DNA of 43,490 bases from a virus (lineage: Duplodnaviria > Heunggongvirae > Uroviricota > Caudoviricetes): positions 1-43,490 of IMG/VR virus record IMGVR_UViG_2778261673_000008; one strand, given 5' to 3'. Below are positions 3,266 to 37,865 of this stretch, one piece after another (the first letter of the stretch is position 1; each line of letters starts with the position of its first letter). Both the position numbers and the translations under genes were made by a program. The notes beneath the pieces were generated by a model, which did no database searches, was not told where the DNA came from, and was given only the letters and a program-made list of their open reading frames with translations.

Positions 3266-4147
3266 TTACATAGATGTTTCGTTTAATTCTTCCCGACGAA
3301 CGCTGTAAACGTCGGTGGCTTTTGCCAGCAGTTCGTCATCATCTGAAAGTTTTTGTGCAATGTATTTGTAAGCCTTATCCAGTTCGGAGACAGTGCTGTA
3401 ATTCATCGCTGCGCTGGTAAAGGCCATCAGCATTTCTTCTGGGTCACGGCTATCCGCTTTACGCGTTTGCTCATCAGGCTTTTTCACTGATTTAGCGTTG
3501 ATCAGACTGTTCATTCCCGCAGCAGTAGTCGTTTGCGGAGTAATGTCTCGCTCAACGCGCGGTGCCGTTTCCTGTAATTCGTCAGGGGTGTAAACACCGA
3601 GAAGTACATCAGGAGCGTGCAGGCGAGCCCATCGTTTCGTGCAAAGATAGGCAAGCTGCTGGCGCGGATCCTGTTCCCACAATGGAGAGTTACGCACTCC
3701 GGCTTGCGCCATACTGATGGTAAGCTCACGGGGTTCTGCTTCTCCTTTAAGAACTGCTGACACAGTTACCGTCAGATTCGGTGATTTATCTGTTTTGCCG
3801 TTAACATTCGACCAGTCACCGCTCCAGCGATAATTCAGGCGTGTCGCTAGCAGGCTGGAAGAGGATACGACCGCGTTTACCAACTGTGCTTCGTAGCCTA
3901 ACGTTCCGTTTACCACATGCGTTTTCTGCGCCACGGCGAAAGGGTTCATTCCCCACTGTGCCGCCTGCATGGTCACCGCCAGACAATCGGCAGGTTTGCC
4001 TTCAAGATGTTTCGGTACAGTCGCTTTGCTTTGTGACATCAACTCCGCGAAACGCACCAGTTGATTCATGCCCTCCGGGCTGAAGATTGCCGCAGCAGTA
4101 CCTACAGTTGCGCCTGGTTGTGATGTGATTGCGATATCATTGCTCAT
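3266..4147 (-). CDS. Single-strand annealing protein (RecT/Red-beta-like)
   Basis: 293 aa; QWGMNPF...NGTLGYEAQ resembles the Bet/RecT core; translationally coupled to the downstream exonuclease. Confidence 0.6.
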   Translation of the reverse strand: MSNDIAITSQPGATVGTAAAIFSPEGMNQLVRFAELMSQSKATVPKHLEGKPADCLAVTMQAAQWGMNPFAVAQKTHVVNGTLGYEAQLVNAVVSSSSLLATRLNYRWSGDWSNVNGKTDKSPNLTVTVSAVLKGEAEPRELTISMAQAGVRNSPLWEQDPRQQLAYLCTKRWARLHAPDVLLGVYTPDELQETAPRVERDITPQTTTAAGMNSLINAKSVKKPDEQTRKADSRDPEEMLMAFTSAAMNYSTVSELDKAYKYIAQKLSDDDELLAKATDVYSVRREELNETSM

Positions 4148-5416: not shown

Positions 5417-5435
5417 AACTTGTTACCTCGGTCTG

Positions 5436-5513
5436 TTACCGTTGAGGTAATAATTATGCGTATATGGTTTGATGTCAATAGATATGAGTTAAAAAAATTA
5501 CCCGTTAGGTAAT
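5436..5513. promoter_or_regulatory. Left operator region: two copies of palindrome (A/G)TTACC-N5-GGTAAT
   Basis: GTTACC GTTGA GGTAAT at 5435-5451 and ATTACC CGTTA GGTAAT at 5497-5513, upstream of the leftward early operon. Confidence 0.55.
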
Positions 5514-5569: not shown

Positions 5570-6154
5570 TTATTGTTTGTTTTTTTCGTTCTGGTTGATG
5601 ACAAATTCAATGTAACTTTCGATCTTTGCTTTCTCGGTTTCGGGTAACAATGCGTAGCGCGAGCGATCATAGTTGATGGTCGCAGGGTCGTGCGGGTGAA
5701 TCAGTAATTCATAGCCGTGACGCCCGAATGCGGATGCAACATTCTCCAGGGTGGAAATGGAAACGCTGACCTCATTGTTTAACAGGCGGCTGATTGTCAC
5801 CTGGGCTACGCCGGATGCGCGGTGAAGTTTTCCCTGTGTTGAAAGGTCGCGGCTTTCGCTCATCCAGCGTTCCAGGTTGTGAGCCGCCAGCTGGCCAATG
5901 TCGCTTGGGCCGACAGGCTGAAAACCTTCCTGAGAAAGCGAGCGATCGATATCAAGCCAGTTACGGGGTTTATTGGCGGCAGCTTCAATTTTTCGTGCAA
6001 CCTGGTCGCCGATAACCTTCTTGCCAAGAGCCCAGCGGTTTACCAGATTTGCCTGAGTTCCAAGTTTTTCAGCCATCCGCGTCTGAACACCATTGAATTC
6101 ACGGTCGATCAAGTCGTTGAGATTTTGCCTGCGGACGTCCTGGATACTTTTCAT
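5570..6154 (-). CDS. Phage repressor with two tandem XRE-type HTH domains, no S24 peptidase domain
   Basis: 194 aa; HTH-like segments near residues 25-65 and 110-160; divergent from the Cro-like gene with operators in between; own terminator. Confidence 0.7.
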   Translation of the reverse strand: MKSIQDVRRQNLNDLIDREFNGVQTRMAEKLGTQANLVNRWALGKKVIGDQVARKIEAAANKPRNWLDIDRSLSQEGFQPVGPSDIGQLAAHNLERWMSESRDLSTQGKLHRASGVAQVTISRLLNNEVSVSISTLENVASAFGRHGYELLIHPHDPATINYDRSRYALLPETEKAKIESYIEFVINQNEKNKQ

Positions 6155-6208
6155 TTTCTGGAAAATCGCCTCATATCTGAATCAGAAGATGATTCAATTT
6201 AAAGCAAT

Positions 6209-6273
6209 ATTACCCAACAGGTAAATGCACCTCGTGGGTAACTATCCTTGATTTTTGTTACCTTATAGGTGAA
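6209..6273. promoter_or_regulatory. Right operator region between repressor and Cro-like gene (three sites)
   Basis: ATTACC CAACA GGTAAA (6209-6225), weaker GCACC TCGTG GGTAA (6227-6241), GTTACC TTATA GGTGAA (6257-6273). Confidence 0.55.
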
Positions 6274-6308
6274 TATTTATTATCTGAAATAAATATCAGG
6301 CAATAGCT

Positions 6309-6539
6309 ATGAGCGATAACGGACATTTCGATTTCAAAAAGCACTGGCTTGCACTTACTCCGGATGAGCGTGAAGCCTTCGCACAGGAAGCCGGAACGAC
6401 GAGTCACTATATCCAGACTCACTTAACAGGTAAGCGCAAAATGCCAGGTAAGGTATTGATGAATGGGCTTTTTAAAGCCTGTAAAACAAGACAATGGCTG
6501 CGCTCAAAAGCAGAACTGGCATACTTCTTCTACTCATGA
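6309..6539 (+). CDS. Cro-like HTH DNA-binding regulator
   Basis: 76 aa, divergent from repressor; HTH-like FAQEAGTTSHYIQTHLTGKR; followed by a terminator. Confidence 0.5.
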   Translation: MSDNGHFDFKKHWLALTPDEREAFAQEAGTTSHYIQTHLTGKRKMPGKVLMNGLFKACKTRQWLRSKAELAYFFYS

Positions 6540-6586: not shown

Positions 6587-6594
6587 ATCTATTC

Positions 6595-6610
6595 GTACCT
6601 CAAAGGTAAT
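6595..6610. promoter_or_regulatory. Operator-like palindrome GTACC-N5-GGTAAT
   Basis: GTACC TCAAA GGTAAT just downstream of the terminator and upstream of the 6690 gene. Confidence 0.4.
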
Positions 6611-6689
6611 AAAAAACCAAATATGGTTGATCTTTTTTTTGTGTCAGCACAAAATAACCGTAATCCCAATACTAATAACAGGGCTTACC

Positions 6690-6905: not shown

Positions 6906-7721
6906 ATGAGCAGACATGCAACAGATTGGGCCTGGGAGACAGATCCAGGTAGCTCATCATTAAAGCTCATACTGCTCTCGATGGCTGACAGAGCCGATGA
7001 ATATAACCTCTGCTACCCCAGCATAGAACGCCTCGTTAAAGACACTTGCCTGAATAAAAAAACCGTGCAGGCCGGGCTTATATCGCTCATGAAAATGGGG
7101 CTTATTTCAGATACCGGAGAGAGAAAGGGAGCGACAAAAAGAGTGCGGGTTTTCTCTCTTAATATAACCAAAAACGGGAACATTAAAGGCAACCGGGAGG
7201 GGGGCAATGAACCCGAAAACGTTAATGTTCCCGAAAACGGGAATATACCCAAAAACGGGATGTTGAATGATCCCAAAAACGGGATGTTGAATGATCCCAA
7301 AAACGGGATCCAGAACCAGTCATATAACCAGTCATATAACCAAGAGAGGGAGAGCAGGACAAAAAACGGGGATTCTGTGCATCATGACCCCGGCGCAAAC
7401 AACGCCGTGATGAATAACTTTGTTCCTCCTGGTGGGCCAGGGCAATTAGGCAAATTTGTCATGCATGAACAATGGCAGCCATCAGATGACTTTCTTCGGA
7501 AAAGCTCATTGCAGGGGATCTACCTGGACAGTCTGCCAACGGCACAGGAACTTGCAGAGTTCAGAATTTACTGGATGGCTGAGGGTAAGGCATACCATCA
7601 GGCACAGTGGGAGCAGAAGCTGGCAAGGCGACTGCAGATTAGCAGACAGAAGCAATCAACATTACCTGATAACAACGTTCCGCACTGGAACAGCCCTGAA
7701 GCATGGGAGGATTTCTTGTGA
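6906..7721 (+). CDS. Replication initiator (lambda O-like role) containing iterons
   Basis: 271 aa; N-terminal winged-helix-like region; internal repeats PENGNIPKNGMLNDPKNGMLNDPKNG are encoded by DNA iterons; immediately upstream of the P-like gene. Confidence 0.65.
   Translation: MSRHATDWAWETDPGSSSLKLILLSMADRADEYNLCYPSIERLVKDTCLNKKTVQAGLISLMKMGLISDTGERKGATKRVRVFSLNITKNGNIKGNREGGNEPENVNVPENGNIPKNGMLNDPKNGMLNDPKNGIQNQSYNQSYNQERESRTKNGDSVHHDPGANNAVMNNFVPPGGPGQLGKFVMHEQWQPSDDFLRKSSLQGIYLDSLPTAQELAEFRIYWMAEGKAYHQAQWEQKLARRLQISRQKQSTLPDNNVPHWNSPEAWEDFL
7168..7308 (+). repeat. Iteron array (putative phage replication origin) inside the O-like gene
   Basis: CCC(A/G)AAAACGGGA repeated at 7168, 7212 (partial), 7230, 7248, 7272, 7296 with 18-24 bp spacing, followed by tandem CAGTCATATAACC x2 (7317-7342). 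Confidence 0.7.
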
Positions 7722-8539: not shown

Positions 8540-8618
8540 ATTACCTTGTAGGTAATAAAATGTTCTAATTTCTATTGATTTCATGTCTTATGTGGTTTTT
8601 AATTACCTAAGGGGTAAA
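8540..8618. promoter_or_regulatory. Two operator palindromes upstream of the 8621 operon
   Basis: ATTACC TTGTA GGTAAT (8540-8556) and ATTACC TAAGG GGTAAA (8602-8618, 3 nt before the ATG), with TATGTGGTT between them. Confidence 0.5.
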
Positions 8619-8620
8619 TC

Positions 8621-8965
8621 ATGAGAAAACAGATACAGGCTCTTGGTCGACTCAAAACAGGCCAGATGAACAAAACAGAATCTGCGTATTGCCAGCACCT
8701 TGAGCTGCGTAAACGTGCAGGAGAAATCGTCTGGTATCGATTTGAGGGTATCAAGTTGCGGTTAGCTGACAACACGTTCTATACGCCCGATTTTGCTGTG
8801 ATGCTCGCCACCGGCGAGATGGAACTGCACGAAGTGAAAGGTTTCTGGACCGACGACGCCAGGGTGAAAACCAAAGTCGCCGCAGATCAGTATCCGTTCC
8901 GAATCATCGGGGTAACGGTTAAACCAAAGAAAGCAGGTGGTGGCTGGAACATCGAAGAGTTCTGA
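8621..8965 (+). CDS. Small phage protein, possibly DUF1064-like nuclease fold
   Basis: 114 aa; YTPDF...ELHEVKG...D pattern; assignment by recollection only. Confidence 0.4.
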   Translation: MRKQIQALGRLKTGQMNKTESAYCQHLELRKRAGEIVWYRFEGIKLRLADNTFYTPDFAVMLATGEMELHEVKGFWTDDARVKTKVAADQYPFRIIGVTVKPKKAGGGWNIEEF

Positions 8966-10506: not shown

Positions 10507-10780
10507 CCTGCAACTTGCCGTCAAAGGTGAATACTTCGATGCCATGATTCGCAGAGAGAAAACGGAAGAGTATCGCCTGTGTAATGACTATTGGAATAAG
10601 CGCCTCGTTAACCGTAAGTATGACCGCCTGATTATCACAAAGGGATATCCGAAGCGTGACGATTCCAGCCGCAGAATTGACGTTCCGTATGGCGGATATG
10701 AAATCAAGACAATCACACATCCGCACTTCGGCGATAAACCGGTAAAGGTTTACGCGATAAAGGTAAATATTGATGGCTAA
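10499..10780 (+). CDS. ASCH/PUA-like small protein
   Basis: 93 aa; N-terminal GEYFDAMIRREKTEEYR resembles the ASCH fold pattern; AGGAGG RBS, GTG start. Confidence 0.4.
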   Translation: MANLQLAVKGEYFDAMIRREKTEEYRLCNDYWNKRLVNRKYDRLIITKGYPKRDDSSRRIDVPYGGYEIKTITHPHFGDKPVKVYAIKVNIDG

Positions 10781-11111
10781 ATCAGCAGCAGAGCGCAAAG
10801 CCGCTCAGAGAGCCAGACAAGCTGCATCCGGTGTACGTAAGCTGGAGATTGTGCTTGATGCTCAGGAAATTGAAATGCTGGAGCGTAACTGTGCCACGCG
10901 TCGCCCCGGGCGTGCGCCTTACGAATTTGGTGAGTATATAGCGTTACTGATCCGCCAGGATGATGCACGCGTGCGCGGGCGTATAAAATCGATCAGCAGA
11001 AAACGTTGCGGTAAGTGCGGCGAGAGAGTTCCAGTTAATTCATGCCCGTGTAATGGTGACTCGCAATGCTGGGTGACTAAAGGCTGGCATGAAACGAAAT
11101 TAATAGTGTGA
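10770..11111 (+). CDS. Hypothetical protein with Cys-rich C-terminus (possible zinc ribbon)
   Basis: 113 aa; C-terminal CGKCGERVPVNSCPCNGDSQC; immediately upstream of the packaging genes; stop codon lies inside the palindrome GTGACATGTCACG. Confidence 0.4.
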   Translation: MMAKSAAERKAAQRARQAASGVRKLEIVLDAQEIEMLERNCATRRPGRAPYEFGEYIALLIRQDDARVRGRIKSISRKRCGKCGERVPVNSCPCNGDSQCWVTKGWHETKLIV

Positions 11112-11160
11112 CATGTCACGAGTAGATTATGCATGATGAATTTGATGTGTTTTGAATACT

Positions 11161-11186
11161 GCCGCCAACTATGGCGGCTTTATTTT
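11161..11186 (+). terminator. Rho-independent terminator
   Basis: GCCGCC-AACTAT-GGCGGC followed by TTTATTTT. Confidence 0.7.
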
Positions 11187-11196
11187 GCATGGTACT

Positions 11197-11231
11197 ATTA
11201 CCACAACGGTAACTATTACCACGGTGGTTAT
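11197..11231. promoter_or_regulatory. Two operator palindromes immediately upstream of the small terminase gene
   Basis: ATTACC ACAAC GGTAAC (11197-11213) and ATTACC ACGGT GGTTAT (11215-11231, reaching the start codon). Confidence 0.45.
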
Positions 11232-11826: not shown

Positions 11827-13298
11827 CAGATGCAGCGTTATCTCCTGAAGAGCAGTTGATCGAGGATATTGCAGGGTTCACTCACGATCCGCTTGGCTAT
11901 GCCCTCTATGCGTTCCCGTGGGGGGAAGAGGGGACTGAACTGGCACATGCTTCCGGCCCACGTCAGTGGCAGGCCGATGCGTTCCGAGAGATACGTGATC
12001 ACCTGCAGAATCCAGAGACGCGTTATCAGCCGCTTATGCTGGCACGTGCTTCTGGTCACGGTATTGGTAAATCCGCATTCATCTCAATGCTAATCAACTG
12101 GGGCATGTCCACTTGCGAGGATTGTAAGGTCGTGGTGACCGCCAACACCGACAACCAGCTACGAACGAAGACCTGGCCGGAAATTATCAAGTGGTCGAAC
12201 CTTGCTATCACGAAAGACTGGTTTACCTGTACCGCTACCGCGATGTACAGCAATGATCCTGGGCACGACAAGCGGTGGCGAGCTGACGCAATCCCCTGGT
12301 CTGAGCACAACACTGAGGCATTCGCCGGACTACACAACGAGCGCAAACGCATCATCGTGGTATTCGATGAAGCGTCGAACATTGCGGATCTGGTGTGGGA
12401 AGTTGCTGAGGGTGCGCTTACGGACGAAGACACTGAGATTATCTGGGTGGCGTTCGGAAACCCTACACGTAATACCGGGCGTTTTCGCGAATGTTTCCGC
12501 AAATACAAACACCGCTGGAAAACTGCGCAGATTGACAGCCGGACGGTGGAAGGTACTAACAAACAGCAGTTGCAGAAATGGGTTGATGACTACGGGGAAG
12601 ACAGCGACTTCGTTAAAATCCGTGTGCGCGGCATATTCCCTGATGCATCTGAATTGCAGTTTATCCCTACCGGTCTTACTGATGAGGCAATGAAACGGGT
12701 GGTAACCGCTGCGCAGGTGGCACATGCTCCGGTGATAATCGGTGTTGACCCGGCATATTCAGGCGTTGATGACGCGGTGATATACCTGCGGCAGGGGTTG
12801 CATAGTAAGGTGCTATGGACTGGCAACAAGACCACTGACGATCTGATTATGGCGAAGCGTATCGCTGACTTTGAAGACCAGTATCAGGCTGACGCGGTGT
12901 TCATCGACTTCGGTTACGGAACCGGTCTGAAGTCAATCGGTGACGGCTGGGGGCGCACATGGCAACTTGTTCCGTTCGGTGGTGCGTCAACTGACCCTCA
13001 GATGCTCAACAAGCGCGGGGAGATGTTCAACTCATGCAAGACATGGCTGAGGTTGGGCGGGATGCTGGATGACCAGGAAACAGCGGACGATCTGTCGGCG
13101 GCAGAGTACAAAGTTCGCGTGGACGGTAAAATCGTTATCGAACCGAAGGAAGATATCAAAGAACGACTTGGGCGTTCGCCTGGTAAAGGCGATGCGCTAC
13201 TGCTGACGTTTGCTTTCCCGGTGTCAAAGCGCCTGCGACTTCCCGGGCAGCAGAACCAGCAAGGCAAGGCGCTTACCGAGTACGATCCATATGCTTAG
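11823..13298 (+). CDS. Terminase large subunit
   Basis: 491 aa; Walker A-like ASGHGIGKS and Walker B-like IVVFDEA, then nuclease region; GTG start overlapping terS stop. Confidence 0.85.
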   Translation: MTDAALSPEEQLIEDIAGFTHDPLGYALYAFPWGEEGTELAHASGPRQWQADAFREIRDHLQNPETRYQPLMLARASGHGIGKSAFISMLINWGMSTCEDCKVVVTANTDNQLRTKTWPEIIKWSNLAITKDWFTCTATAMYSNDPGHDKRWRADAIPWSEHNTEAFAGLHNERKRIIVVFDEASNIADLVWEVAEGALTDEDTEIIWVAFGNPTRNTGRFRECFRKYKHRWKTAQIDSRTVEGTNKQQLQKWVDDYGEDSDFVKIRVRGIFPDASELQFIPTGLTDEAMKRVVTAAQVAHAPVIIGVDPAYSGVDDAVIYLRQGLHSKVLWTGNKTTDDLIMAKRIADFEDQYQADAVFIDFGYGTGLKSIGDGWGRTWQLVPFGGASTDPQMLNKRGEMFNSCKTWLRLGGMLDDQETADDLSAAEYKVRVDGKIVIEPKEDIKERLGRSPGKGDALLLTFAFPVSKRLRLPGQQNQQGKALTEYDPYA

Positions 13299-14113
13299 TC
13301 TTTATTTTTATCCTCGAAACCTGATAATCCAGATAGAACACCAAAGTTATTAAAAACGTTTGGCTTACCAGATTTTAATCCGGATAAGTTGTGTTGCTCC
13401 AAAAAGTTGCTAATTGTTTGGCCGTTGCCAAGTGCAAGGCTTTTTATTTGAGATTTTTCAGGGTATTTGAGTTTGTATTCGTCGAAATCATTTTGGAGGG
13501 TCTTATATGCCTCATTCATTCTTCCAAGAGTTTCCGATATCTCTTTTAATGAATGATTTAGAGCTGCTAACTGAGCACTGGCGGATCTCAATTCGTCATC
13601 TTTAGCTTTCAACTCGGCAGTCAATTCCCCCATACTATTCTTTGATCGAATAATCTCTTCTTTCATCTCTTGGATGTCTTTTTCCGCGCCAGTCTTAACT
13701 TTGTCGTATGTAACATCTTTTTTAGCCAATAACCTCTGCAGTCTTGTTTCACGCTGGATTTTTCTTGCCTTCAGGTGATTTTCGATTGAGTCATTATTAT
13801 CAAGAGGCTTTGCTTGCCATACGTTAATGATATTGTTTACCCATGGTAATAGGCAGCAGATAGCAATTACAGATAAGCATGGATAAAACATAACAGTTTT
13901 CCATGTGCTGTTATCTGAGATATATGAAATTTTATCTATTATGTTTGATTTGCTAAAAAATAGATAAAGAATTGATTTCCAGTTGAAGGCGCACCAGGAC
14001 ATAACAAAAGCACCAAGCACAGGGTTTTTGGCTCGATTCACGGCAGTATTGGCAGTAGATAAAAACAGCTCTTTGAACGATTCAAACATGCTAATTACCT
14101 TGAAGTTTTTCAT
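13295..14113 (-). CDS. AT-rich moron: membrane protein with long coiled-coil domain
   Basis: Start taken at MKNFKV; two hydrophobic segments (about residues 32-53 and 73-96), then a 130-aa K/E-rich coiled coil; opposite strand to flanking late genes; operator palindrome 4 nt upstream of the ATG. Confidence 0.5.
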   Translation of the reverse strand: MKNFKVISMFESFKELFLSTANTAVNRAKNPVLGAFVMSWCAFNWKSILYLFFSKSNIIDKISYISDNSTWKTVMFYPCLSVIAICCLLPWVNNIINVWQAKPLDNNDSIENHLKARKIQRETRLQRLLAKKDVTYDKVKTGAEKDIQEMKEEIIRSKNSMGELTAELKAKDDELRSASAQLAALNHSLKEISETLGRMNEAYKTLQNDFDEYKLKYPEKSQIKSLALGNGQTISNFLEQHNLSGLKSGKPNVFNNFGVLSGLSGFEDKNKD

Positions 14114-14116
14114 GAT

Positions 14117-14133
14117 TATACCTTTAAGGTAAT
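14117..14133. promoter_or_regulatory. Operator palindrome TATACC-N5-GGTAAT overlapping the moron promoter
   Basis: Minus-strand reading ATTACCTTAAAGGTATAATCATG: palindrome includes a TATAAT hexamer directly before the ATG. Confidence 0.45.
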
Positions 14134-14335: not shown

Positions 14336-14412
14336 TGGCGTGGCATGCAGGATTCGAACCTGCGACCAACCGCTTAGAAGGCGGTTGCTCTGTCCAACTG
14401 AGCTAATGCCAC
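14336..14412 (-). tRNA. tRNA-Arg (anticodon UCU), phage-encoded
   Basis: Hand-folded cloverleaf: acceptor GTGGCAT/ATGCCAC, D-arm GCTC/GAGC, anticodon stem ACCGC/GCGGT with loop CTTCTAA, T-arm GCAGG-TTCGAAT-CCTGC, encoded CCA. Confidence 0.85.
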
Positions 14413-14733: not shown

Positions 14734-14750
14734 ATTACCTGAAAGGTAAT
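14734..14750. promoter_or_regulatory. Operator palindrome ATTACC TGAAA GGTAAT upstream of the portal operon
   Basis: Perfect palindrome; followed about 40 bp later by CATATGTGGTT and GGTAATAA, the same composite element as at 34,549-34,619. Confidence 0.5.
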
Positions 14751-14839
14751 AATTTGTGCGTTAAATGTCAACTATCTACGATAAATAAATCATATGTGGT
14801 TAAATTGGTAATAATTTAATTGCGTACGGAGTCATTGAT

Positions 14840-19617: not shown

Positions 19618-19941
19618 ATGGAACTCGTAAACCTCAAAACCGGCACTGACAGCTACCAGGATGAGAGCGGAGAAACCAGAACTCGCGATGAATACCCGTG
19701 GGGGCTGTGCATCACTCTTAATAACGACACATTGAATAAGCTGAAGGCGCAACCTCAGGGCGTCGGAACAGAAGTGATGATAACTGCAAAGGCTGTTATT
19801 CGAGGCCTGTCTGCCAGAGAAACTGACGATGGGGTTAATCGCAGCGCCGATCTGCAGATCACTGATATGGCGATCGCTCCTGTTTCCGGGGATGTAGAAA
19901 AATCAGCGGCTGAAACCCTGTACGGCAATGGGGGTGAGTAA
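19618..19941 (+). CDS. Hypothetical protein (107 aa)
   Basis: AGGAG RBS before ATG 19618. Confidence 0.4.
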   Translation: MELVNLKTGTDSYQDESGETRTRDEYPWGLCITLNNDTLNKLKAQPQGVGTEVMITAKAVIRGLSARETDDGVNRSADLQITDMAIAPVSGDVEKSAAETLYGNGGE

Positions 19942-33325: not shown

Positions 33326-33435
33326 TTTACCGAAAAGGTAATGATAAGCGCGAATAAATATCAAAATCAACCGTATTTGGTTGATGGAGTTTAATGCTTG
33401 ATCACCTGAAAGCAAGATATTACCTTTAAGGTAAT
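33326..33435. promoter_or_regulatory. Two operator palindromes in the divergent region between Bro and the 33455 gene
   Basis: TTTACC GAAAA GGTAAT (33326-33342) and ATTACC TTTAA GGTAAT (33419-33435, 20 nt before the ATG). Confidence 0.5.
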
Positions 33436-34183: not shown

Positions 34184-34208
34184 GCCGCTCTTGCGGCCTT
34201 TAAATTTA
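34182..34208 (+). terminator. Terminator hairpin between convergent genes
   Basis: AGGCCGC-TCTT-GCGGCCT followed by TTTAAATTT. Confidence 0.55.
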
Positions 34209-34463
34209 CCGGGTTTGTTTTCGTAATTGTTCGGCACAATAGTCGAGATGTGTTTGCAGATCCCGCATAGACATCTGTGAGCTGGTGACGTAGTTAATCA
34301 GTGCAGTCAGTTCGGCAAGTGGGCCATCGACATTAAATCCATCCTTATCGAGATCCCGGAGTAATTTCATCAAGTGCGATCCCTCCACCAGTGACCTGAC
34401 GCCTCCCGGCGTGTGAATCCTTTCGGTAAATCCCTCTTCCAGTGGATAGTGATACTGCTGCAT
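34206..34463 (-). CDS. Small protein paralogous to the Bro C-terminal domain; candidate SOS-controlled antirepressor
   Basis: Start taken at MQQYHYPLEEGF (GGAG RBS); aligns with the Bro C-terminus (HTPGGVRSLVEGSHLMKLLRDLDKDGFNVDGPLAELT versus HSPSGVLGLTENSLLMNLLNQLQDDGHDVSGAAAELT); LexA box 22 bp upstream. Confidence 0.5.
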   Translation of the reverse strand: MQQYHYPLEEGFTERIHTPGGVRSLVEGSHLMKLLRDLDKDGFNVDGPLAELTALINYVTSSQMSMRDLQTHLDYCAEQLRKQTR

Positions 34464-34484
34464 CTTATCTTCTCCATGCAATAA

Positions 34485-34500
34485 CTGTATATTTATACAG
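34485..34500. promoter_or_regulatory. LexA (SOS) box
   Basis: AACTGTATATTTATACAGTAT matches CTGT-N8-ACAG and the TACTGTATATATATACAGTA consensus; lies in the promoter region of the 34206-34463 gene. Confidence 0.7.
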
Positions 34501-34548
34501 TATCAAATAATTTATTTGCTATCCAGCACGTTTTGAAAATTACCTGAA

Positions 34549-34565
34549 AGGTAATATCTGTTCGA
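34549..34565. promoter_or_regulatory. Operator palindrome ATTACC TGAAA GGTAAT upstream of the tailspike gene
   Basis: Identical to the site at 14734-14750; followed by CATATGTGGTT (34594-34604) and GGTAATAAAAT (34610-34620). Confidence 0.5.
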
Positions 34566-34658
34566 ATTCACAGTCTATCTATCCATATGTGGTTTTTCAG
34601 GTAATAAAATAACCGGATATGCGGCGCAACGGGTGCTGCGACTATCTGGAGATTTAAC

Positions 34659-37070
34659 ATGACGGTCTCAACCGAAGTCGACCATAACGACTACACAGGG
34701 AACGGCGTTACCACATCTTTCCCGTACACGTTCCGCATCTTCAAGAAGTCAGATCTCACCGTCCAGGTCGCTGACCTTAACGAAAATATTACGGTGCTGA
34801 CTCTGGATACCGATTACTCCGTTACCGGGGCGGGTACCTATTCTGGCGGGAATGTCGTGCTGATGTCACCGCTGGCCAACGGATGGCAGATTTCTATCTC
34901 GCGCGACCTCCCAGTTACCCAAGAGACTGACCTCCGTAACCAGGGGAAGTTCTTCGCAGAGGTCCATGAGGATGCGTTCGACAAGCTGACCATGCTTATC
35001 CAGCAGTGTTTCAGCTTTCTACGCCTGGCGCTGCGCAAGCCGTCGTTCATCGCGAACTATTATGACGCACTCAACAACCGCATTCGTAACCTTCGTGACC
35101 CGTCACAGGCGCAGGACGCAGCCACGAAGAATTATGTTGATGGGCAGATCGTTGACAACACCAATGCCTGGAAAGCTGGTGATGCCATTCTTGATCAGAA
35201 GATTGACAGTAATTTTGCGAGAACTCTACGGGTTCCAGAAAGCACTGTTGACCAACTAAGCCCGGTATCTGTTCGGAAAAACTCGTTGTTAGGATGGGAT
35301 AGCAACGGAAAGCCAATACCTGTTTTTTCGATGACAGATACAGCAGATCTCGCAATAAAGTTAGCATCTCATGAAGATGGTCTTGGTATGTCTTTGCTGG
35401 GCATGCCAGGGTCTGGATCTTTAAATCAACTTATTGGTAAGTGGACTTGTCCTGAGGCATGGGGCGTTATTACTGATTCCCAGCCAGACGCTCATGCTAA
35501 TTCTAAAAAAATGTTTAATATGTTTGAGTGGTTACGATCTTTAGGTGGCGGTGTAGCATATTTCACACCAGGTAAAACCTATTGGATTGATTTTATTCAG
35601 TTCGTACCCAGCAATGTTGTAATTATAGGATATGGGGCTACGGTAAAACAGATAAACCCATTGTCAATGTATGGTCGTGGTGGTTTCGTTTTTGGGAGTG
35701 GCAGAGAATGGAACTATAAAAAAGCAAAAGCGGCATACAATTCCGGTAATTACCCGTCTTCCGTTGCTGATTCTACGATGGCAGAGTTACCACTGAAATC
35801 TTACCTGAGAGATAATCAGTCTTATGTTCAGTGTGAGAAATGTAAAGTTTATGGCTTGCGCATGTCTGCAGTGTTTACTGATTCCAGCTATTGGGGAGGC
35901 TATGCATTTAATTGTGTTAATGCACAGCATATAAGATTTTTCGATGTGGTTGGTGATGGTTGGACTCAATTGTTTAACTTTGGTAACGATAGTTCTTCCT
36001 CTTCTCCATCTTGTTATGATGTAATTGCAAAAGGTGCTACCGTTGAAAAGGCGGATCTTGTTCGCACTTATTATGCATTTGGTTTTATTGCAAACTCAAC
36101 AGATTGCTGGATTGAAGATTGTGATCTACTTAAGCCTATGACTGCCGGAACTATTAATGGTTCAGGAGCTGCTACAAACTTTGTAGAAAACTGTGGGTTT
36201 AAAGATTTACGAGCTGCAAAATTAGGTCGTACAGTATCTTCGGAGATGGTTCTATTAAATAATGCAAAAGGCTGTCTTGTTGAGAATATAGATGTTGGTG
36301 ACTGCATTAATGGTGTAGCCACCTACTATACTGATGATTCATATAATGATGCTAACATGCCGAATATTATAAGAAACATTTCTGCATCAGCTGATAATGT
36401 TGTCGCTCTTCGTGCAAAATACTCTGTTATTGATGCATTTCATGGTAAGGGGGCATACATAAATGAGTTGTATTTCGCAAATAATAACGCAAGCGGAAAC
36501 AAAATAAATAAAAACCCTAAATCTATAGGCTTTGGTGGCACAAACCTGCAATCATGGTTTTTAACCAATAATACTGTTCTTGGTTGGTTCAGAAGATATT
36601 TTTATTTAAGACCATCAGAAATAATTCTGAACGACAAAGCAGACACATTATCATGGACATTTAACAAATTAGTATCAACAAAAAACGGTGTTGATCTTTA
36701 CTTCATGTGGAGGGTTCCAGATGATATAAAAGCTATTGATGATATAAGAGCTTTTATAAGATTTAACATTTCACCTGATCAGAATGCAGCAGCAGCAGGA
36801 TCTACTGTTGAAGCAAGTTTAATTCAGATGATATCGTTTGACGGAGATATAAATACAGATCCTTACACGGCGTTTTCTAATTCAAAAGTTGCTACATCTG
36901 GAGTTGAAAACACTACAATAGTAACTCAAATGGGGTCAACTGCCCCTGGCTTTGTAAAAATGGCAGATGAAACACATGGACTTGCATATAGTTGGTATGT
37001 GTTATTTAAAATGACACATAACGTAAATAACAATTATATGAAAGAAATCAGAATAGCGGGGTATAATTAA
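34659..37070 (+). CDS. Tailspike / tail fibre protein
   Basis: 803 aa; N-terminal segment of phage-typical GC content, then a long AT-rich C-terminal part with beta-rich N/G/S/T/Y composition. Confidence 0.7.
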   Translation: MTVSTEVDHNDYTGNGVTTSFPYTFRIFKKSDLTVQVADLNENITVLTLDTDYSVTGAGTYSGGNVVLMSPLANGWQISISRDLPVTQETDLRNQGKFFAEVHEDAFDKLTMLIQQCFSFLRLALRKPSFIANYYDALNNRIRNLRDPSQAQDAATKNYVDGQIVDNTNAWKAGDAILDQKIDSNFARTLRVPESTVDQLSPVSVRKNSLLGWDSNGKPIPVFSMTDTADLAIKLASHEDGLGMSLLGMPGSGSLNQLIGKWTCPEAWGVITDSQPDAHANSKKMFNMFEWLRSLGGGVAYFTPGKTYWIDFIQFVPSNVVIIGYGATVKQINPLSMYGRGGFVFGSGREWNYKKAKAAYNSGNYPSSVADSTMAELPLKSYLRDNQSYVQCEKCKVYGLRMSAVFTDSSYWGGYAFNCVNAQHIRFFDVVGDGWTQLFNFGNDSSSSSPSCYDVIAKGATVEKADLVRTYYAFGFIANSTDCWIEDCDLLKPMTAGTINGSGAATNFVENCGFKDLRAAKLGRTVSSEMVLLNNAKGCLVENIDVGDCINGVATYYTDDSYNDANMPNIIRNISASADNVVALRAKYSVIDAFHGKGAYINELYFANNNASGNKINKNPKSIGFGGTNLQSWFLTNNTVLGWFRRYFYLRPSEIILNDKADTLSWTFNKLVSTKNGVDLYFMWRVPDDIKAIDDIRAFIRFNISPDQNAAAAGSTVEASLIQMISFDGDINTDPYTAFSNSKVATSGVENTTIVTQMGSTAPGFVKMADETHGLAYSWYVLFKMTHNVNNNYMKEIRIAGYN

Positions 37071-37342
37071 TGACTGGTTCAGATGCAAAACAGGCAGATG
37101 TGTTATTCAAGGCTATCGTTGATTATTATGGAAACATGAGCGGAAGCGATATCACTACAGCGCAAGTAAATCAACGTGACAAAATCATAGCAAGTGGAGT
37201 TATTGAATGTGACGACGCTATAGATTTAAAAATACTTGAACTTCAAGACAAGTATATTGATGCAGAAAATGAAGCATCTACTGAAACGATGTTATTAAAA
37301 AGAAAGCAGGTTGTTGAAGAGGCAATTCTTTTATTGTCATAG
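37070..37342 (+). CDS. Hypothetical protein (90 aa), AT-rich
   Basis: Start overlaps the tailspike stop (TAATGA); acidic. Confidence 0.4.
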   Translation: MTGSDAKQADVLFKAIVDYYGNMSGSDITTAQVNQRDKIIASGVIECDDAIDLKILELQDKYIDAENEASTETMLLKRKQVVEEAILLLS

Positions 37343-37460
37343 AAAAACACGTTTTCAATGATCATTTGTCATGATTACCATTTATCCATAAATGGTTTAT
37401 TGTGTATGATGGACTGACCAAACTAAGGAGGTTCATCATGCATAGTAAACGGTGGTCATC

Positions 37461-37865
37461 ATGTCTGCATCGCTAACCGCTGATACAATAAATCAGGGGC
37501 TTAGCTATGGTGCGCTGGCAGCAGTCATCGCCGGCGTACCTCCTGAAGTGGCGCTGGGATCGCTGGCCGGGGCGGTAATTTTTGTTACCTCTGCAGTTGA
37601 GTATCCGTTCAAGCGCCGCGTTCTCCTGGCGCTACTCAGCTTTCTCTGCGGTCTTCTCTTCTACAAACCCACAGCATCAATCCTTATCGGCGTTGCCAGC
37701 ATGATCCCCACCATCACACAGGACTCGTTCGAGCGGGGCATTGTCTACTCCGCCGGCGCGTTCGTTGCCGCAATTGTCGCGGTGCGGGTTGGGATATGGC
37801 TGTATCACCGCTCTGACAATCCGCGCGATTTAATCCCGGGAGGAAAAGACGATGACAGGCCATGA
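37461..37865 (+). CDS. Putative holin-like membrane protein
   Basis: Several hydrophobic segments, charged C-terminus, directly upstream of the lysis genes; start ambiguous (GTG 37452 or ATG 37461). Confidence 0.5.
   Translation: MSASLTADTINQGLSYGALAAVIAGVPPEVALGSLAGAVIFVTSAVEYPFKRRVLLALLSFLCGLLFYKPTASILIGVASMIPTITQDSFERGIVYSAGAFVAAIVAVRVGIWLYHRSDNPRDLIPGGKDDDRP

Follow-up and report, generated by a model that had tools for sequence, protein, structure and literature searches.

The epsilon15/phiV10 group consists of serotype-converting prophages of Salmonella and E. coli O157, and SPC32H is the model for antirepressor-driven induction. The Rep repressor of the SPC32H/epsilon15 gp38 type is a tetramer, which is inactivated by a LexA-controlled antirepressor and not by cleavage. 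The GenBank record of epsilon15 (NC_004775) carries 'protein_bind repressor' sites upstream of gp3/portal, the tail fibre, the middle operon, PL and terS. No late-gene regulator was annotated in the records examined for the epsilon15/phiV10 group. Rep is described in a passage of PMC9638917 as a tetramer that binds palindromic sites. In phage ZX5, a 99%-identical phage, overexpression of the repressor lowers the holin and endolysin transcripts by ~99.97-99.99% (PMC9782041).

The stretch of DNA analyzed here (the window; 43,490 nucleotides, IMG/VR record IMGVR_UViG_2778261673_000008) is a phiV10/TL-2011b-like prophage of the epsilon15 type (Uetakevirus) from E. coli. Like the epsilon15/SPC32H Rep/Ant/LexA switch, it has the same 17-bp palindrome at orthologous places, a homologous repressor and a LexA box that precedes the small ant-like gene adjoining the tailspike promoter. 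A preliminary description had reported a composite promoter-like element shared by the portal and tailspike operons. The repeated element was confirmed as genuine: it consists of a prophage repressor-binding site and a second conserved 14-bp dyad, referred to below as the box, in the promoter core. Their pairing appears to mark nearly all predicted lytic promoters of the prophage, beyond the portal and tailspike operons.

The repressor operator

The features that concern the repressor and the promoter divergent from the portal are as follows.

5570-6154, minus strand: Rep repressor gene, 194 aa, two HTH domains (Pfam HTH_3; match to PDB 5D50)
14734-14750, no strand assigned: portal Rep operator, perfect palindrome ATTACCTGAAAGGTAAT; on the minus strand it overlaps a predicted -10, TACCTT
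14766-14771, minus strand: -35 (TTGACA) of a predicted leftward promoter, 17 bp from the TACCTT inside the operator
34539-34555, no strand assigned: tailspike Rep operator, the identical 17-mer, between the divergent promoter of the ant-like gene and the tailspike promoter

The palindrome ATTACC-N5-GGTAAT is the predicted operator of the phage repressor Rep. Exact copies were found at 5 sites in the window against 0.00 expected, and with up to two mismatches there were 16 against 1.23 expected, a count that none of 100 shuffles reached. Those at 14734 and 34539 have no mismatch and are the same sequence; the operator centre (N5) is free in sequence. The repressor sites annotated in epsilon15 lie at orthologous positions, the aligned pairs being 2931-2947 of epsilon15 with 14734 of the window, 19895-19911 with 34539 and 35906-35922 with 8540. 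Rep of the window is a full-length homologue of the SPC32H repressor (PDB 5D50; E = 4e-42). The Rep proteins of phages with the box have no more than 42-44% identity to one another. Additionally, three operator-like sites are found in the rep-gp39 intergenic region (6209-6273). This half of the element was already known, and confirms the existing epsilon15 annotation only.

The operator at 14734 is not simply the operator of the portal promoter, because the -10 of a conserved leftward promoter, divergent from that of the portal, overlaps it. The GTCAA of the leftward -35 is invariant in 11 of 11 aligned sequences, and its spacing from the operator is fixed in the 10 enterobacterial ones. This promoter is predicted to drive tRNA-Arg(UCU) (14336-14412, minus strand), with transcription ending at the terminator at 14292-14257 (minus strand). 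Moreover, the portal and tailspike operators lie ~70-80 bp upstream of the likely start. At this distance direct repression of the two promoters by Rep, through the half-site or a partner at the box, is assumed and not evident.

A second conserved dyad

The second element is best described as a 14-bp imperfect dyad with the consensus (A/T)(A/T)CCATATATGGTT, of which CATATGTGGTT would be the right-hand part. At the portal the pieces first reported, ATTACCTGAAAGGTAAT(A) at 14734-14751, CATATGTGGTT at 14791-14801 and GGTAATAA at 14807-14814, are present. The same three pieces recur at the tailspike (34539-34556, 34584-34594 and 34600-34607), about 10 bp away from the coordinates originally assigned, 34549-34619. 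The gap of about 40 bp between the 17-mer and CATATGTGGTT is correct for the portal (40 bp) but not for the tailspike (28 bp). The related arrangement reported at 8540-8618 is genuine, with an operator at 8540-8556, TTATGTGGTT at 8588-8597 and a second full operator at 8602-8618, which abuts the ATG at 8621. These elements do lie in intergenic promoter regions and are common to several operons. The proposal that an operator is combined with a separate second element also stands, in that the palindrome matches the annotated epsilon15 repressor sites and the second element is independently conserved.

The preliminary description took the module to be specific to the portal and tailspike operons. 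Instead, the box occurs at seven promoters in the window (PL, gp40/replication, middle, portal, Bro-antirepressor, tailspike and lysis), early ones included, and at all seven it lies in the promoter core. The box at the lysis-operon promoter (37384-37397) and those at four more promoters had been missed.

14788-14801, plus strand: portal box AATCATATGTGGTT, which contains CATATGTGGTT; matrix rank 6; 52.5 bp centre-to-centre from the operator
14807-14817, plus strand: portal GGTAATAATTT, a repressor half-site over the candidate -10
34581-34594, plus strand: tailspike box ATCCATATGTGGTT; matrix rank 1; 40.5 bp from the operator centre
34600-34610, plus strand: tailspike GGTAATAAAAT, a repressor half-site with a candidate -10 (TAATAA 34602-34607 or TAAAAT 34605-34610)
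8540-8618, plus strand: middle promoter module; operators 8540-8556 and 8602-8618, -35 TTGATT 8575-8580, -10 TTTAAT 8598-8603, half-conserved box 8584-8597 in the spacer; the ATG at 8621 is that of the DUF1064 gene
37384-37410, plus strand: lysis-operon promoter; box ATCCATAAATGGTT 37384-37397, 7 nt, -10 TATGAT 37405-37410; matrix rank 2
5435-5513, minus strand: early-left promoter, PL-like; two operators, 5435-5451 and 5497-5513, with 62 bp between their centres; -35 TTGACA (5478-5473), -10 AATTAT (5455-5450), box 5456-5469 in the spacer
6594-6655, plus strand: gp40/replication promoter; operator 6594-6610, box 6615-6628, -35 TTGATC 6627-6632, -10 CAAAAT 6650-6655
33326-33435, minus strand: promoter of the Bro-type antirepressor region; operators 33419-33435 and 33326-33342, box 33369-33382 overlapping the -35 TTGATT (33370-33365), -10 TATCAT (33346-33341) overlapping the operator 33326-33342

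TATGTGGTT occurs exactly at only three places in the window, those named in the preliminary description, and with one mismatch it is not enriched alone (13 against 9.2 expected). The longer CATATNTGGTT, with at most one mismatch, was found 12 times against 3.07 expected, and none of 100 shuffles reached 12. Lysis promoters from five other phages, and no sequence of the window, served to train a weight matrix, with which both strands of the window were scored. The tailspike box ranked first, followed by lysis (2), gp40 (3 and 4), Bro (5) and portal (6). There were 10 matches of at least 12 bits in the window, 2.2 being expected, and in four genomes every match above ~14 bits lay in a promoter region.

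The box is an invariant block in the orthologous portal, tailspike, lysis, gp40 and middle promoters of six phages, and the flanks diverge. At the tailspike, CATAT..GGTT is invariant in the six phages with varying flanks, as is GGTAATA.AAT, after whose AAT the conservation ends; the start codon is at 34659. The gp40 promoter block is likewise invariant in six phages, and the Bro promoter has the same layout in Tyrion and phiV10. When 11 portal promoter sequences were aligned, the box was kept, near-invariant, in the 10 enterobacterial ones and lost in Providencia. It is conserved in at least 10 enterobacterial prophage lineages, with hosts (E. coli, Salmonella, Klebsiella, Enterobacter, Citrobacter, Kluyvera and Erwinia) that all belong to the Enterobacterales. 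A portal-based scan of viral sequences returned only 99-100% identical relatives. When viral contigs were searched with the lysis-promoter sequence, the matches, mostly on contigs of about 30-45 kb, appeared from their length to belong to this same phage group. The PL box is strong in Tyrion (24.9 bits) and not conserved in epsilon15 or SPN1S. Of the middle-promoter box only the right half is kept in several phages, and it is at full strength in Tyrion and a Klebsiella phage. No box was found in the rep-gp39 (PR/PRM) region, though this is the usual site of Cro-type action.

The possibility was considered that TGTGGTT is a DnaA box, as its core had been thought to resemble one, which would tie late transcription to the protein that initiates host replication. 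The portal copy, TGTGGTTAA, is indeed one mismatch from TGTGNATAA. However, three mismatches separate that sequence from the tailspike and middle copies (TGTGGTTTT), so that the likeness is confined to the portal. Furthermore, TGTG is replaced in the orthologues by TAAG, TACG or TATG (TAAGG, TACGG, TATGG), with GGTT and CCATA, the left arm, kept. Because of this pattern, the constraint appears to be on a CC-N6-GG dyad and not on a DnaA 9-mer. The DnaA box (TTATNCACA / TGTGNATAA) was rejected on its mismatches and the lack of conservation of the TGTG part, and a role for DnaA is very improbable indeed.

The operator and the box occur together at 6 of the 7 box-bearing promoters of the window and at 7 of 7 in both phiV10 and Tyrion. 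Their separation is close to 2, 4 or 5 helical turns: the distances between centres in four genomes were 19.5, 40.5-43.5 and 51.5-52.5 bp, with slight departures, such as 21.5 bp at the Klebsiella PL. At the lysis promoter of the window only an ATTACC half-operator is found upstream (37374-37379), and in phiV10 and Tyrion a full operator lies 43.5 bp upstream. Operators are spaced by 62 bp at PL and the middle promoter, and likewise at the portal with its pseudo-operator, a 17-mer at 14796-14812 whose centre is 62 bp from the upstream operator.

A promoter scan was made with a canonical sigma-70 criterion, in which the -35 and -10 hexamers had to match at 9/12 or more positions with a spacer of 16-18 bp. 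PL scored 10/12 and the Bro promoter 9/12. On the plus strand the scan detected no promoter in the regions of the portal and tailspike, and none in the conserved lysis core; its only match in the lysis region, 37334-37362, is upstream of that core. The lysis promoter has a good -10 (TATGAT) and no -35. In six phages the box is followed after 7 nt by TATGAT, TAATAA or TAATAG at the lysis, portal and tailspike promoters, with a 1-nt deletion at the tailspike of SPN1S. Three positions of the box result: -19.5 at PL and middle, -26.5 at portal, tailspike and lysis, and -40.5/-41.5 at gp40 and Bro. The candidate -10 hexamers at the portal are TAATAA (14809-14814), AATAAT (14810-14815) and TAATTT (14812-14817). 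The -26.5 position requires that TAATAA or TAATAG, which have no T at -7, serve as the -10 at the portal and tailspike; if the better hexamers TAAAAT, TAGAAT or AATAAT are taken, the common box spacing is broken.

Other promoter readings of the box were discarded. As an extended -10 (TGn), the TG of TGTGGTT is out of register in all promoters. If the box itself were the -10 (TATGTG, TATATG), it would have no T at -7 and no -35 17 bp upstream. A leftward PRE-like promoter inside the gp40-promoter box was also discarded, as its -35 is not conserved.

Candidate readers of the box

The Providencia relative, with a portal 66% identical, has neither the operator nor the box motif. Two other dyads, TAACC-N5-GGTTA and ATAAACA-N1-3-TGTTTAT, take the same promoter positions, and the comparison argues for both motifs being immunity-specific. 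In a further locus, L193 (portal 46% identical), no intergenic promoter was found upstream.

It is possible that the box is a second, lower-affinity Rep site, in which case one tetramer, with its two DNA-binding units, would hold the operator by one unit and the box together with the half-site by the other, wrapping the DNA and occluding the promoter in the lysogen. The co-occurrence of the two motifs at in-phase distances is consistent with such an arrangement, as are the tetrameric binding to palindromic sites described in the passage of PMC9638917 and the upstream position of the late-promoter operators, too remote for them to block RNA polymerase by themselves. Both motifs have ACC...GGT arms, with spacing that differs by 1 bp, and they change together in the Providencia relative. 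However, the consensus of the box is strong and distinct, and its centre, CATATATG, is conserved where that of the operator is free; for this reason the box is not a degenerate operator. Operators without a box are found at PR/PRM, terS and 14117. Moreover, the N-terminal recognition segment of Rep (NLVNRW) follows the operator, but QATVNRI, the segment of the C-terminal HTH, is near-identical in the Klebsiella phage and Providencia despite their differing second dyads. The C-terminal HTH was rejected as the reader since its recognition segment does not follow the box sequence, and Rep binding to the box is unlikely.

A dedicated late activator was also considered, for example the 113-aa RHH-plus-Cys-rich regulator encoded before terS (10770-11111). 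The three late operons have the box 7 nt from a TAWKAW hexamer and no -35, and the regulator gene stands at the end of the middle operon, a frequent place for late regulators. Against this, early promoters have boxes of equal strength (gp40 and Bro; PL and middle in Tyrion). In Pectobacterium phage ZF40, whose regulator is 67% identical, the box is not enriched (5 against 3.1 expected, with none at late intergenic regions), and the Providencia relative has a 58%-identical regulator without the box. Additionally, another palindrome, GTGACATGTCAC, is conserved beside the regulator gene in the window and ZF40 and is a better candidate target. ZF40 and Providencia thus weaken the 113-aa RHH/Zn regulator as the reader, and a late activator of this kind is quite unlikely. 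The small Zn-finger protein gp40 was discarded as well, being equally diverged from epsilon15, which has the same box, and from Providencia, which has different dyads.

The box could also be read by no phage protein, as an intrinsic promoter feature or a host-factor site, for example a bendable AT-rich dyad that favors the formation of small repressor loops, or an unconventional -35/spacer for the host RNA polymerase. Its conservation across prophages of Enterobacterales would allow a common host factor, it lies between operators 62 bp apart, a spacing that requires sharp bending, and the epsilon15 annotation has predicted IHF sites beside the portal and tail operators. Those IHF annotations, however, are not over the box, and the dyad symmetry with conserved CC/GG arms suggests a specific dimeric binder. 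Three different positions relative to the -10 are unlike a core promoter element. The box was compared by eye with host consensus sequences, and none of IHF, Fis, CRP, CpxR, PhoP, ArcA and the sigma-32 -10 fits it, nor does that of DnaA. An origin of the box in host factors or intrinsic promoter structure is improbable.

The likeliest reader among the phage proteins is encoded next to rep.

6309-6539, plus strand: gp39, 76-aa HTH protein in the Cro position, candidate box reader (phrog_35 'transcriptional repressor')

Five phages that share the box have the same HTH in gp39, with 58-84% identity over the protein as a whole, and in the Providencia relative this HTH is changed. This is a single independent contrast, drawn from one heteroimmune relative that has diverged throughout the immunity region. 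A further point against gp39 is that, should it be the first protein of the lytic phase, nothing obvious would delay the late promoters.

Proposed mechanism and known systems

The reading that we favor, with moderate confidence, is a modular repressor-controlled promoter, in which a Rep operator would be combined with a box for a second immunity-specific regulator, gp39 being the likeliest, and with a half-site at the -10. Rep would bind the operator, and the second regulator, most likely gp39, would bind the box as a dimer. At the portal and tailspike promoters a putative GGTAAT half-site for the repressor overlaps the -10 region. With the operator and box an integral number of helical turns apart, the bound proteins would face each other. 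The effect of the box may depend on its position. At PL and middle, which are strong sigma-70 promoters, the box in the spacer (centre about -19.5) would lead to repression. At gp40 and Bro it lies over the -35, at about -40.5/-41.5, which would be the position of a class-II activator. At portal, tailspike and lysis, which have no recognizable -35, a box at ~-26.5, 7 nt from TAWKAW, would most likely substitute for the -35. The box binder, the sign of regulation and the transcription start sites are given here as we infer them from sequence.

A wider proposal is held only tentatively and is on balance doubtful: the whole Uetakevirus lytic programme may be a two-key code, each lytic promoter except PR having a Rep operator and an in-phase gp39 site, with gp39 acting from three positions. 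If so, gp39 made from PR would be the master temporal switch and would contact Rep on the same face of the DNA, repressing early promoters, activating others in the class-II manner and replacing the -35 at late ones.

The 14-bp box and its phased pairing with the operator appear to be undescribed. The epsilon15 annotation differs from the present analysis in having no feature for a second dyad, for operator-box phasing or for occurrence at seven promoters. Neither motif was found in a phage context in literature other than the primary epsilon15/SPC32H papers (Kropinski 2007; Kim and Ryu 2013; Kim et al. 2016), and because these were outside the scope an earlier description of the box may exist. 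The box offers a concrete starting point for tests of how this phage group turns on its late genes and of how a promoter is silenced by a repressor bound 70-80 bp upstream. It should also be useful for promoter and operon annotation in many related enterobacterial prophages.

The Lpa-dependent late promoters of phage P1 depend on an activator and have a conserved box and a TANNNT -10. The portal, tailspike and lysis promoters are similar in that they have a conserved inverted repeat from -20 to -33, a weak -10 and no -35. As in the activator-dependent late promoters of P1 Lpa, P2 Ogr and T4 MotA, the box is at a fixed distance from the -10 where a -35 is missing. In those systems, however, a late-only box goes with a dedicated late activator, whereas here the PL, gp40, middle and Bro promoters have the box too. 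No activator of the Lpa, Ogr or Mor type was identified.

In phage P1 (C1) and mycobacteriophage L5 (gp71 and its stoperators), one immunity repressor acts on operators dispersed over the genome. The present phage is similar in that each operon would be controlled locally and not by a single early-promoter cascade. It differs in its sites, which are symmetric palindromes. They belong to an unrelated tetrameric repressor with a double HTH, are accompanied by a second dyad and are often set as pairs 62 bp apart around the promoter.

Position-dependent dual regulators of phage temporal switches are known in phi29 p4 and in lambda CI at PRM/PR. The likeness is that one dyad binder could repress from the spacer or -10 and activate at the -35, depending on its position. 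There is no homology to these regulators. In contrast to both, the box takes three discrete positions, and a separate repressor operator goes with each box.

Identity of the phage and copies of the shared element

The 6-kb stretch around the element was 98-99% identical to Escherichia phages HEMP4, vB_EcoP_ZX5, phiv142-3, TL-2011b and phiV10 and 76-83% identical to Enterobacter phage Tyrion, Klebsiella phage ST11-OXA245phi3.2 and Salmonella phages 65FD and SPN1S. Because of these identities, the window is assigned to the epsilon15-type (Uetakevirus) prophages of E. coli. From the left end, the gene order is integrase, repressor/Cro-like pair (5570-6539), replication and "middle" operon, terminase, portal/structural operon, antirepressor region, tailspike and lysis genes. 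The preliminary description had reported that a composite element at the portal operon recurs at the tailspike operon, and its three pieces were found at both sites.

Pieces of the shared element
14734-14750 and 34539-34555: operator ATTACCTGAAAGGTAAT, identical copies at portal and tailspike
14791-14801 and 34584-34594: CATATGTGGTT, portal and tailspike
14807-14814 and 34600-34607: GGTAATAA, portal and tailspike
8540-8618: middle promoter module, with operator 8540-8556, -35 TTGATT, TTATGTGGTT at 8588-8597, AT-rich -10 and operator 8602-8618

The tailspike copy spans 34539-34607, the interval originally assigned to it being displaced by about 10 bp. Likewise, the gap of about 40 bp described between operator and CATATG applies to the portal (40 bp) but not to the tailspike (28 bp). 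The arrangement at 8540-8618 is akin to the other two, as had been noted, with more parts: a -35, a -10 and a second full operator immediately 5' of the ATG. The recurrence is far above chance level. Five exact ATTACC-N5-GGTAAT palindromes were found in the window against 0.00 expected, 16 with up to two mismatches against 1.23, and 12 copies of CATATNTGGTT with up to one mismatch against 3.07, a count reached in no shuffle.

By its sequence, the 17-bp palindrome is the operator of the phage repressor, Rep, already known and annotated in epsilon15, whose GenBank record has "protein_bind: repressor / lysogeny" features at several places.

Repressor sites of epsilon15 (GenBank annotation)
2931-2947: 5' of gp3 and portal
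19895-19911: 5' of tail fibre
35906-35922: 5' of the middle operon

Four further sites are recorded, three to the left of the repressor gene and the fourth ahead of terS. The annotated sites inspected read ATTACC-N5-GGTAAT in a context matching that of the window, and in aligned promoters the two phages' operators match column for column. The window repressor (5570-6154, minus strand) is a full-length match to that of SPC32H (PDB 5D50; E = 4e-42), and three operator-like sites lie between its gene and the gene in the Cro position. In phage ZX5, which is 99% identical to the window phage, overexpression of the repressor lowered holin and endolysin transcripts by about 99.97-99.99% (PMC9782041). 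Two operators directly adjoin a start codon, covering the ribosome-binding site: 8602-8618 (ATTACCTAAGGGGTAAAtcATG) and 14117-14133 (ATTACCTTAAAGGTATAatcATG, minus strand), the latter fronting the minus-strand gene 13295-14113.

The second element is a dyad found at seven promoters

Orthologous promoters were aligned from six phages (window, phiV10, epsilon15, Tyrion, SPN1S and the Klebsiella phage). At the tailspike, CATAT..GGTT was constant in all six, the two middle bases differed (GT, AA, AC, AT) and 27 bases on the operator side were free to diverge. The portal block CATATGTGGTTAAATTGGTAATAATTTAA was constant in the six phages and near-constant across ten enterobacterial species, where it also occurs as CCGTATATGG and TCTTATGTGG. 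The clearest copy was in the lysis-operon promoter, absent from the preliminary description, where the perfect 14-bp palindrome AACCATATATGGTT precedes TATTGTG and a -10 close to consensus (TATGAT or TATAAT). Since the three alignments hold the arms of a dyad, the conserved unit is read as (A/T)(A/T)CC-ATATAT-GGTT, referred to as the box. The core had been likened to a DnaA box; this requires TGTG, the very part that varies among orthologues, and the portal copy alone fits, so that a DnaA box is extremely improbable.

A weight matrix was built from the lysis promoters of five phages other than the window, and both strands of the window were scanned. Its six best positions (tailspike 34583, lysis 37386, 6615/6617, 33369 and portal 14790) were intergenic, each adjoining an operator, and matches of at least 12 bits numbered 10 against 2.2 in shuffles. 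With a broader matrix, all matches above about 14 bits in the window, phiV10, Tyrion and the Klebsiella phage were at promoters, namely PL, gp40/replication, middle, portal, leftward Bro-antirepressor, tailspike and lysis; matches in phage 65FD follow the same pattern. The block at the promoter of gp40, a small Zn-finger protein, was constant in six of six phages (operator, 4 nt, box, TTGATC, 17 nt, CAAAAT). Because box matches span seven promoters and several phages, the operator-box module is, on comparative grounds, a general trait of lytic promoters; portal and tailspike do share it, but it is not peculiar to them.

Spacing and promoter context

The operator-to-box centre distances took few values, repeated across genomes: 19.5 bp (PL, gp40, middle), 40.5-43.5 bp (tailspike, Bro, middle, lysis) and 51.5-52.5 bp (portal, Bro), or about 2, 4 and 5 turns of the helix. 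With one distance per promoter, the seven phases fall within about 3 bp of the 10.5-bp turn, for which the chance is roughly 0.004-0.03, a rough arc estimate by hand that varies with the promoters taken as independent. From operator to box, the alignments contained practically no indels and many substitutions. Operator pairs around PL and around the middle promoter are 62 bp apart, centre to centre; the portal 17-mer ending in a GGTAAT half-site (14796-14812) is 62 bp from the upstream operator, and the tailspike counterpart of this distance is 50 bp.

Measured against the best -10 candidates, the box centre is at about -19.5 at PL and middle, both with a good -35 and -10 (PL scored 10/12 in the promoter scan). 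It is at about -40.5/-41.5 at gp40 and Bro, overlapping TTGATC or TTGATT, and at about -26.5 at lysis, as it would be at portal and tailspike if their -10 is TAATAA/TAATAG at the 7-nt spacing of the lysis TATGAT. A simple sigma-70 scan of the plus strand found no promoter in the portal and tailspike regions; in the lysis region the single match (37334-37362) is 5' of the conserved core, where a -35 is lacking. A GC-rich stem-loop, GCGGCGCAACGGGTGCTGC (34622-34642), falls within the predicted 5' UTR of the tailspike gene; its paired GCGC...GGGCGC is kept in six phages. In the lysis region (37425-37463), the strong Shine-Dalgarno AAGGAGG and ATG 37438 are kept in all relatives. This ATG is 23 nt 5' of, and in a different frame from, ATG 37461, which matches the start of the annotated first gene of the lysis operon; it may open a leader peptide or serve as an alternative start.

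A minus-strand TTGACA (14771-14766) is separated by 17 bp from TACCTT, which is inside the portal operator; GTCAA was constant in 11 of 11 aligned sequences, at fixed operator spacing in the 10 enterobacterial ones. The portal operator may thus also serve a predicted divergent promoter.

Features downstream of the predicted leftward promoter
14412-14336, minus strand: tRNA-Arg(UCU) gene, between terminase and portal
14292-14257, minus strand: strong terminator 3' of the tRNA-Arg gene

This looks like a leftward tRNA unit under repressor control with a leader of about 325 nt, and the conservation of GTCAA, CTACG and AAATAA between operator and CATATG probably belongs in part to it.

Candidate regulators and related systems

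A Providencia prophage, whose portal is 66% identical to that of the window, was searched for the operator and box motifs and neither was found. At equivalent promoter positions it has TAACC-N5-GGTTA and ATAAACA-N1-3-TGTTTAT, the latter occupying the spacer of the middle promoter, the place of the box in the E. coli phage. Because this relative has other dyads there, both motifs appear to be specific to the immunity type. This speaks against recognition by a conserved host factor or late activator; a host-factor site or intrinsic element is an unlikely identity for the box, and a late-activator site slightly more so. In this heteroimmune prophage (L182), the two dyads, together with three direct TTTGTTTAT repeats at PR/PRM, are found at 462-476, 1232-1301, 3495-3531 and 7523-7537; its TAACCTTTnAGGTTA resembles the MqsA antitoxin palindrome.

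For the 76-aa HTH protein in the Cro position, gp39 (6309-6539, plus strand), identity is 76-84% among window, epsilon15, SPN1S and Tyrion, falling to 58% for the Klebsiella phage homologue. All five of these box phages have one and the same HTH (AGTTSHYIQTHL); Providencia gp39 is 30% identical and its HTH differs. Rep is just 42-44% identical among phages having both motifs. In its N-terminal part, the segment NLVNRW follows the operator, and its C-terminal HTH was rejected as box reader when that segment failed to track the box; a second Rep site is about as doubtful as a host-factor site. Also rejected was gp40, equally distant from epsilon15 and Providencia. A 113-aa RHH/Cys-rich regulator is a weakened candidate, being 58% identical in Providencia, which has no box, and 67% identical in Pectobacterium phage ZF40, without box enrichment. 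From this comparison, a single independent contrast, we infer that gp39 is the best candidate. PR/PRM has no box, which counts against a classical Cro role for gp39. The gp39 leader contains an inverted repeat, TATTTATT-N6-AATAAATA (6274-6297), kept in phiV10 and Tyrion, which could act as another regulator site or form an RNA hairpin.

The whole mechanism, control of lytic promoters by Rep and a second, box-binding regulator (most likely gp39), is in our estimation an evenly balanced proposal. In the lysogen the 17-bp operators would be filled by Rep, and a dimer of the second regulator would bind the box on a helix face shared with Rep. A box in the spacer of a strong promoter would cause repression; one overlapping or replacing the -35 would be required for initiation. 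The GGTAAT half-site on the -10 would provide a weak second Rep contact, closing the promoter. In the records examined, neither the box and its dyad character nor its occurrence at seven promoters or its phasing with the operator is annotated, and the searchable literature, in a search not extending to three primary papers, contained neither box nor phasing. The box and its operator phasing thus appear to be new, and the operator known.

Directly 3' of the 113-aa regulator gene (10770-11111) is a perfect palindrome, GTGACATGTCAC (11108-11119), also present 3' of the homologous gene in ZF40. After it come a terminator and then a tandem pair of operators that overlap the start of terS (11161-11180, 11197-11231 region), a layout reminiscent of a Q/qut/tR'-type antitermination unit.

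The Rep of SPC32H is reportedly a tetramer inactivated by a small antirepressor expressed from a LexA-controlled promoter. The window has a comparable site.

34485-34500: LexA box CTGT-N8-ACAG, 5' of an ant-like gene (34206-34481, minus strand) and adjoining the tailspike operator

The LexA box covers part of the predicted -10 of the ant-like gene, which is small (phrog_450), similar to the C-terminal part of an anti-repressor and divergent from the tailspike promoter. The tailspike operator has the LexA-controlled ant promoter on one side and the promoter of the tailspike gene on the other. The LexA box and ant-like gene are consistent with a LexA/antirepressor induction switch of the SPC32H type.
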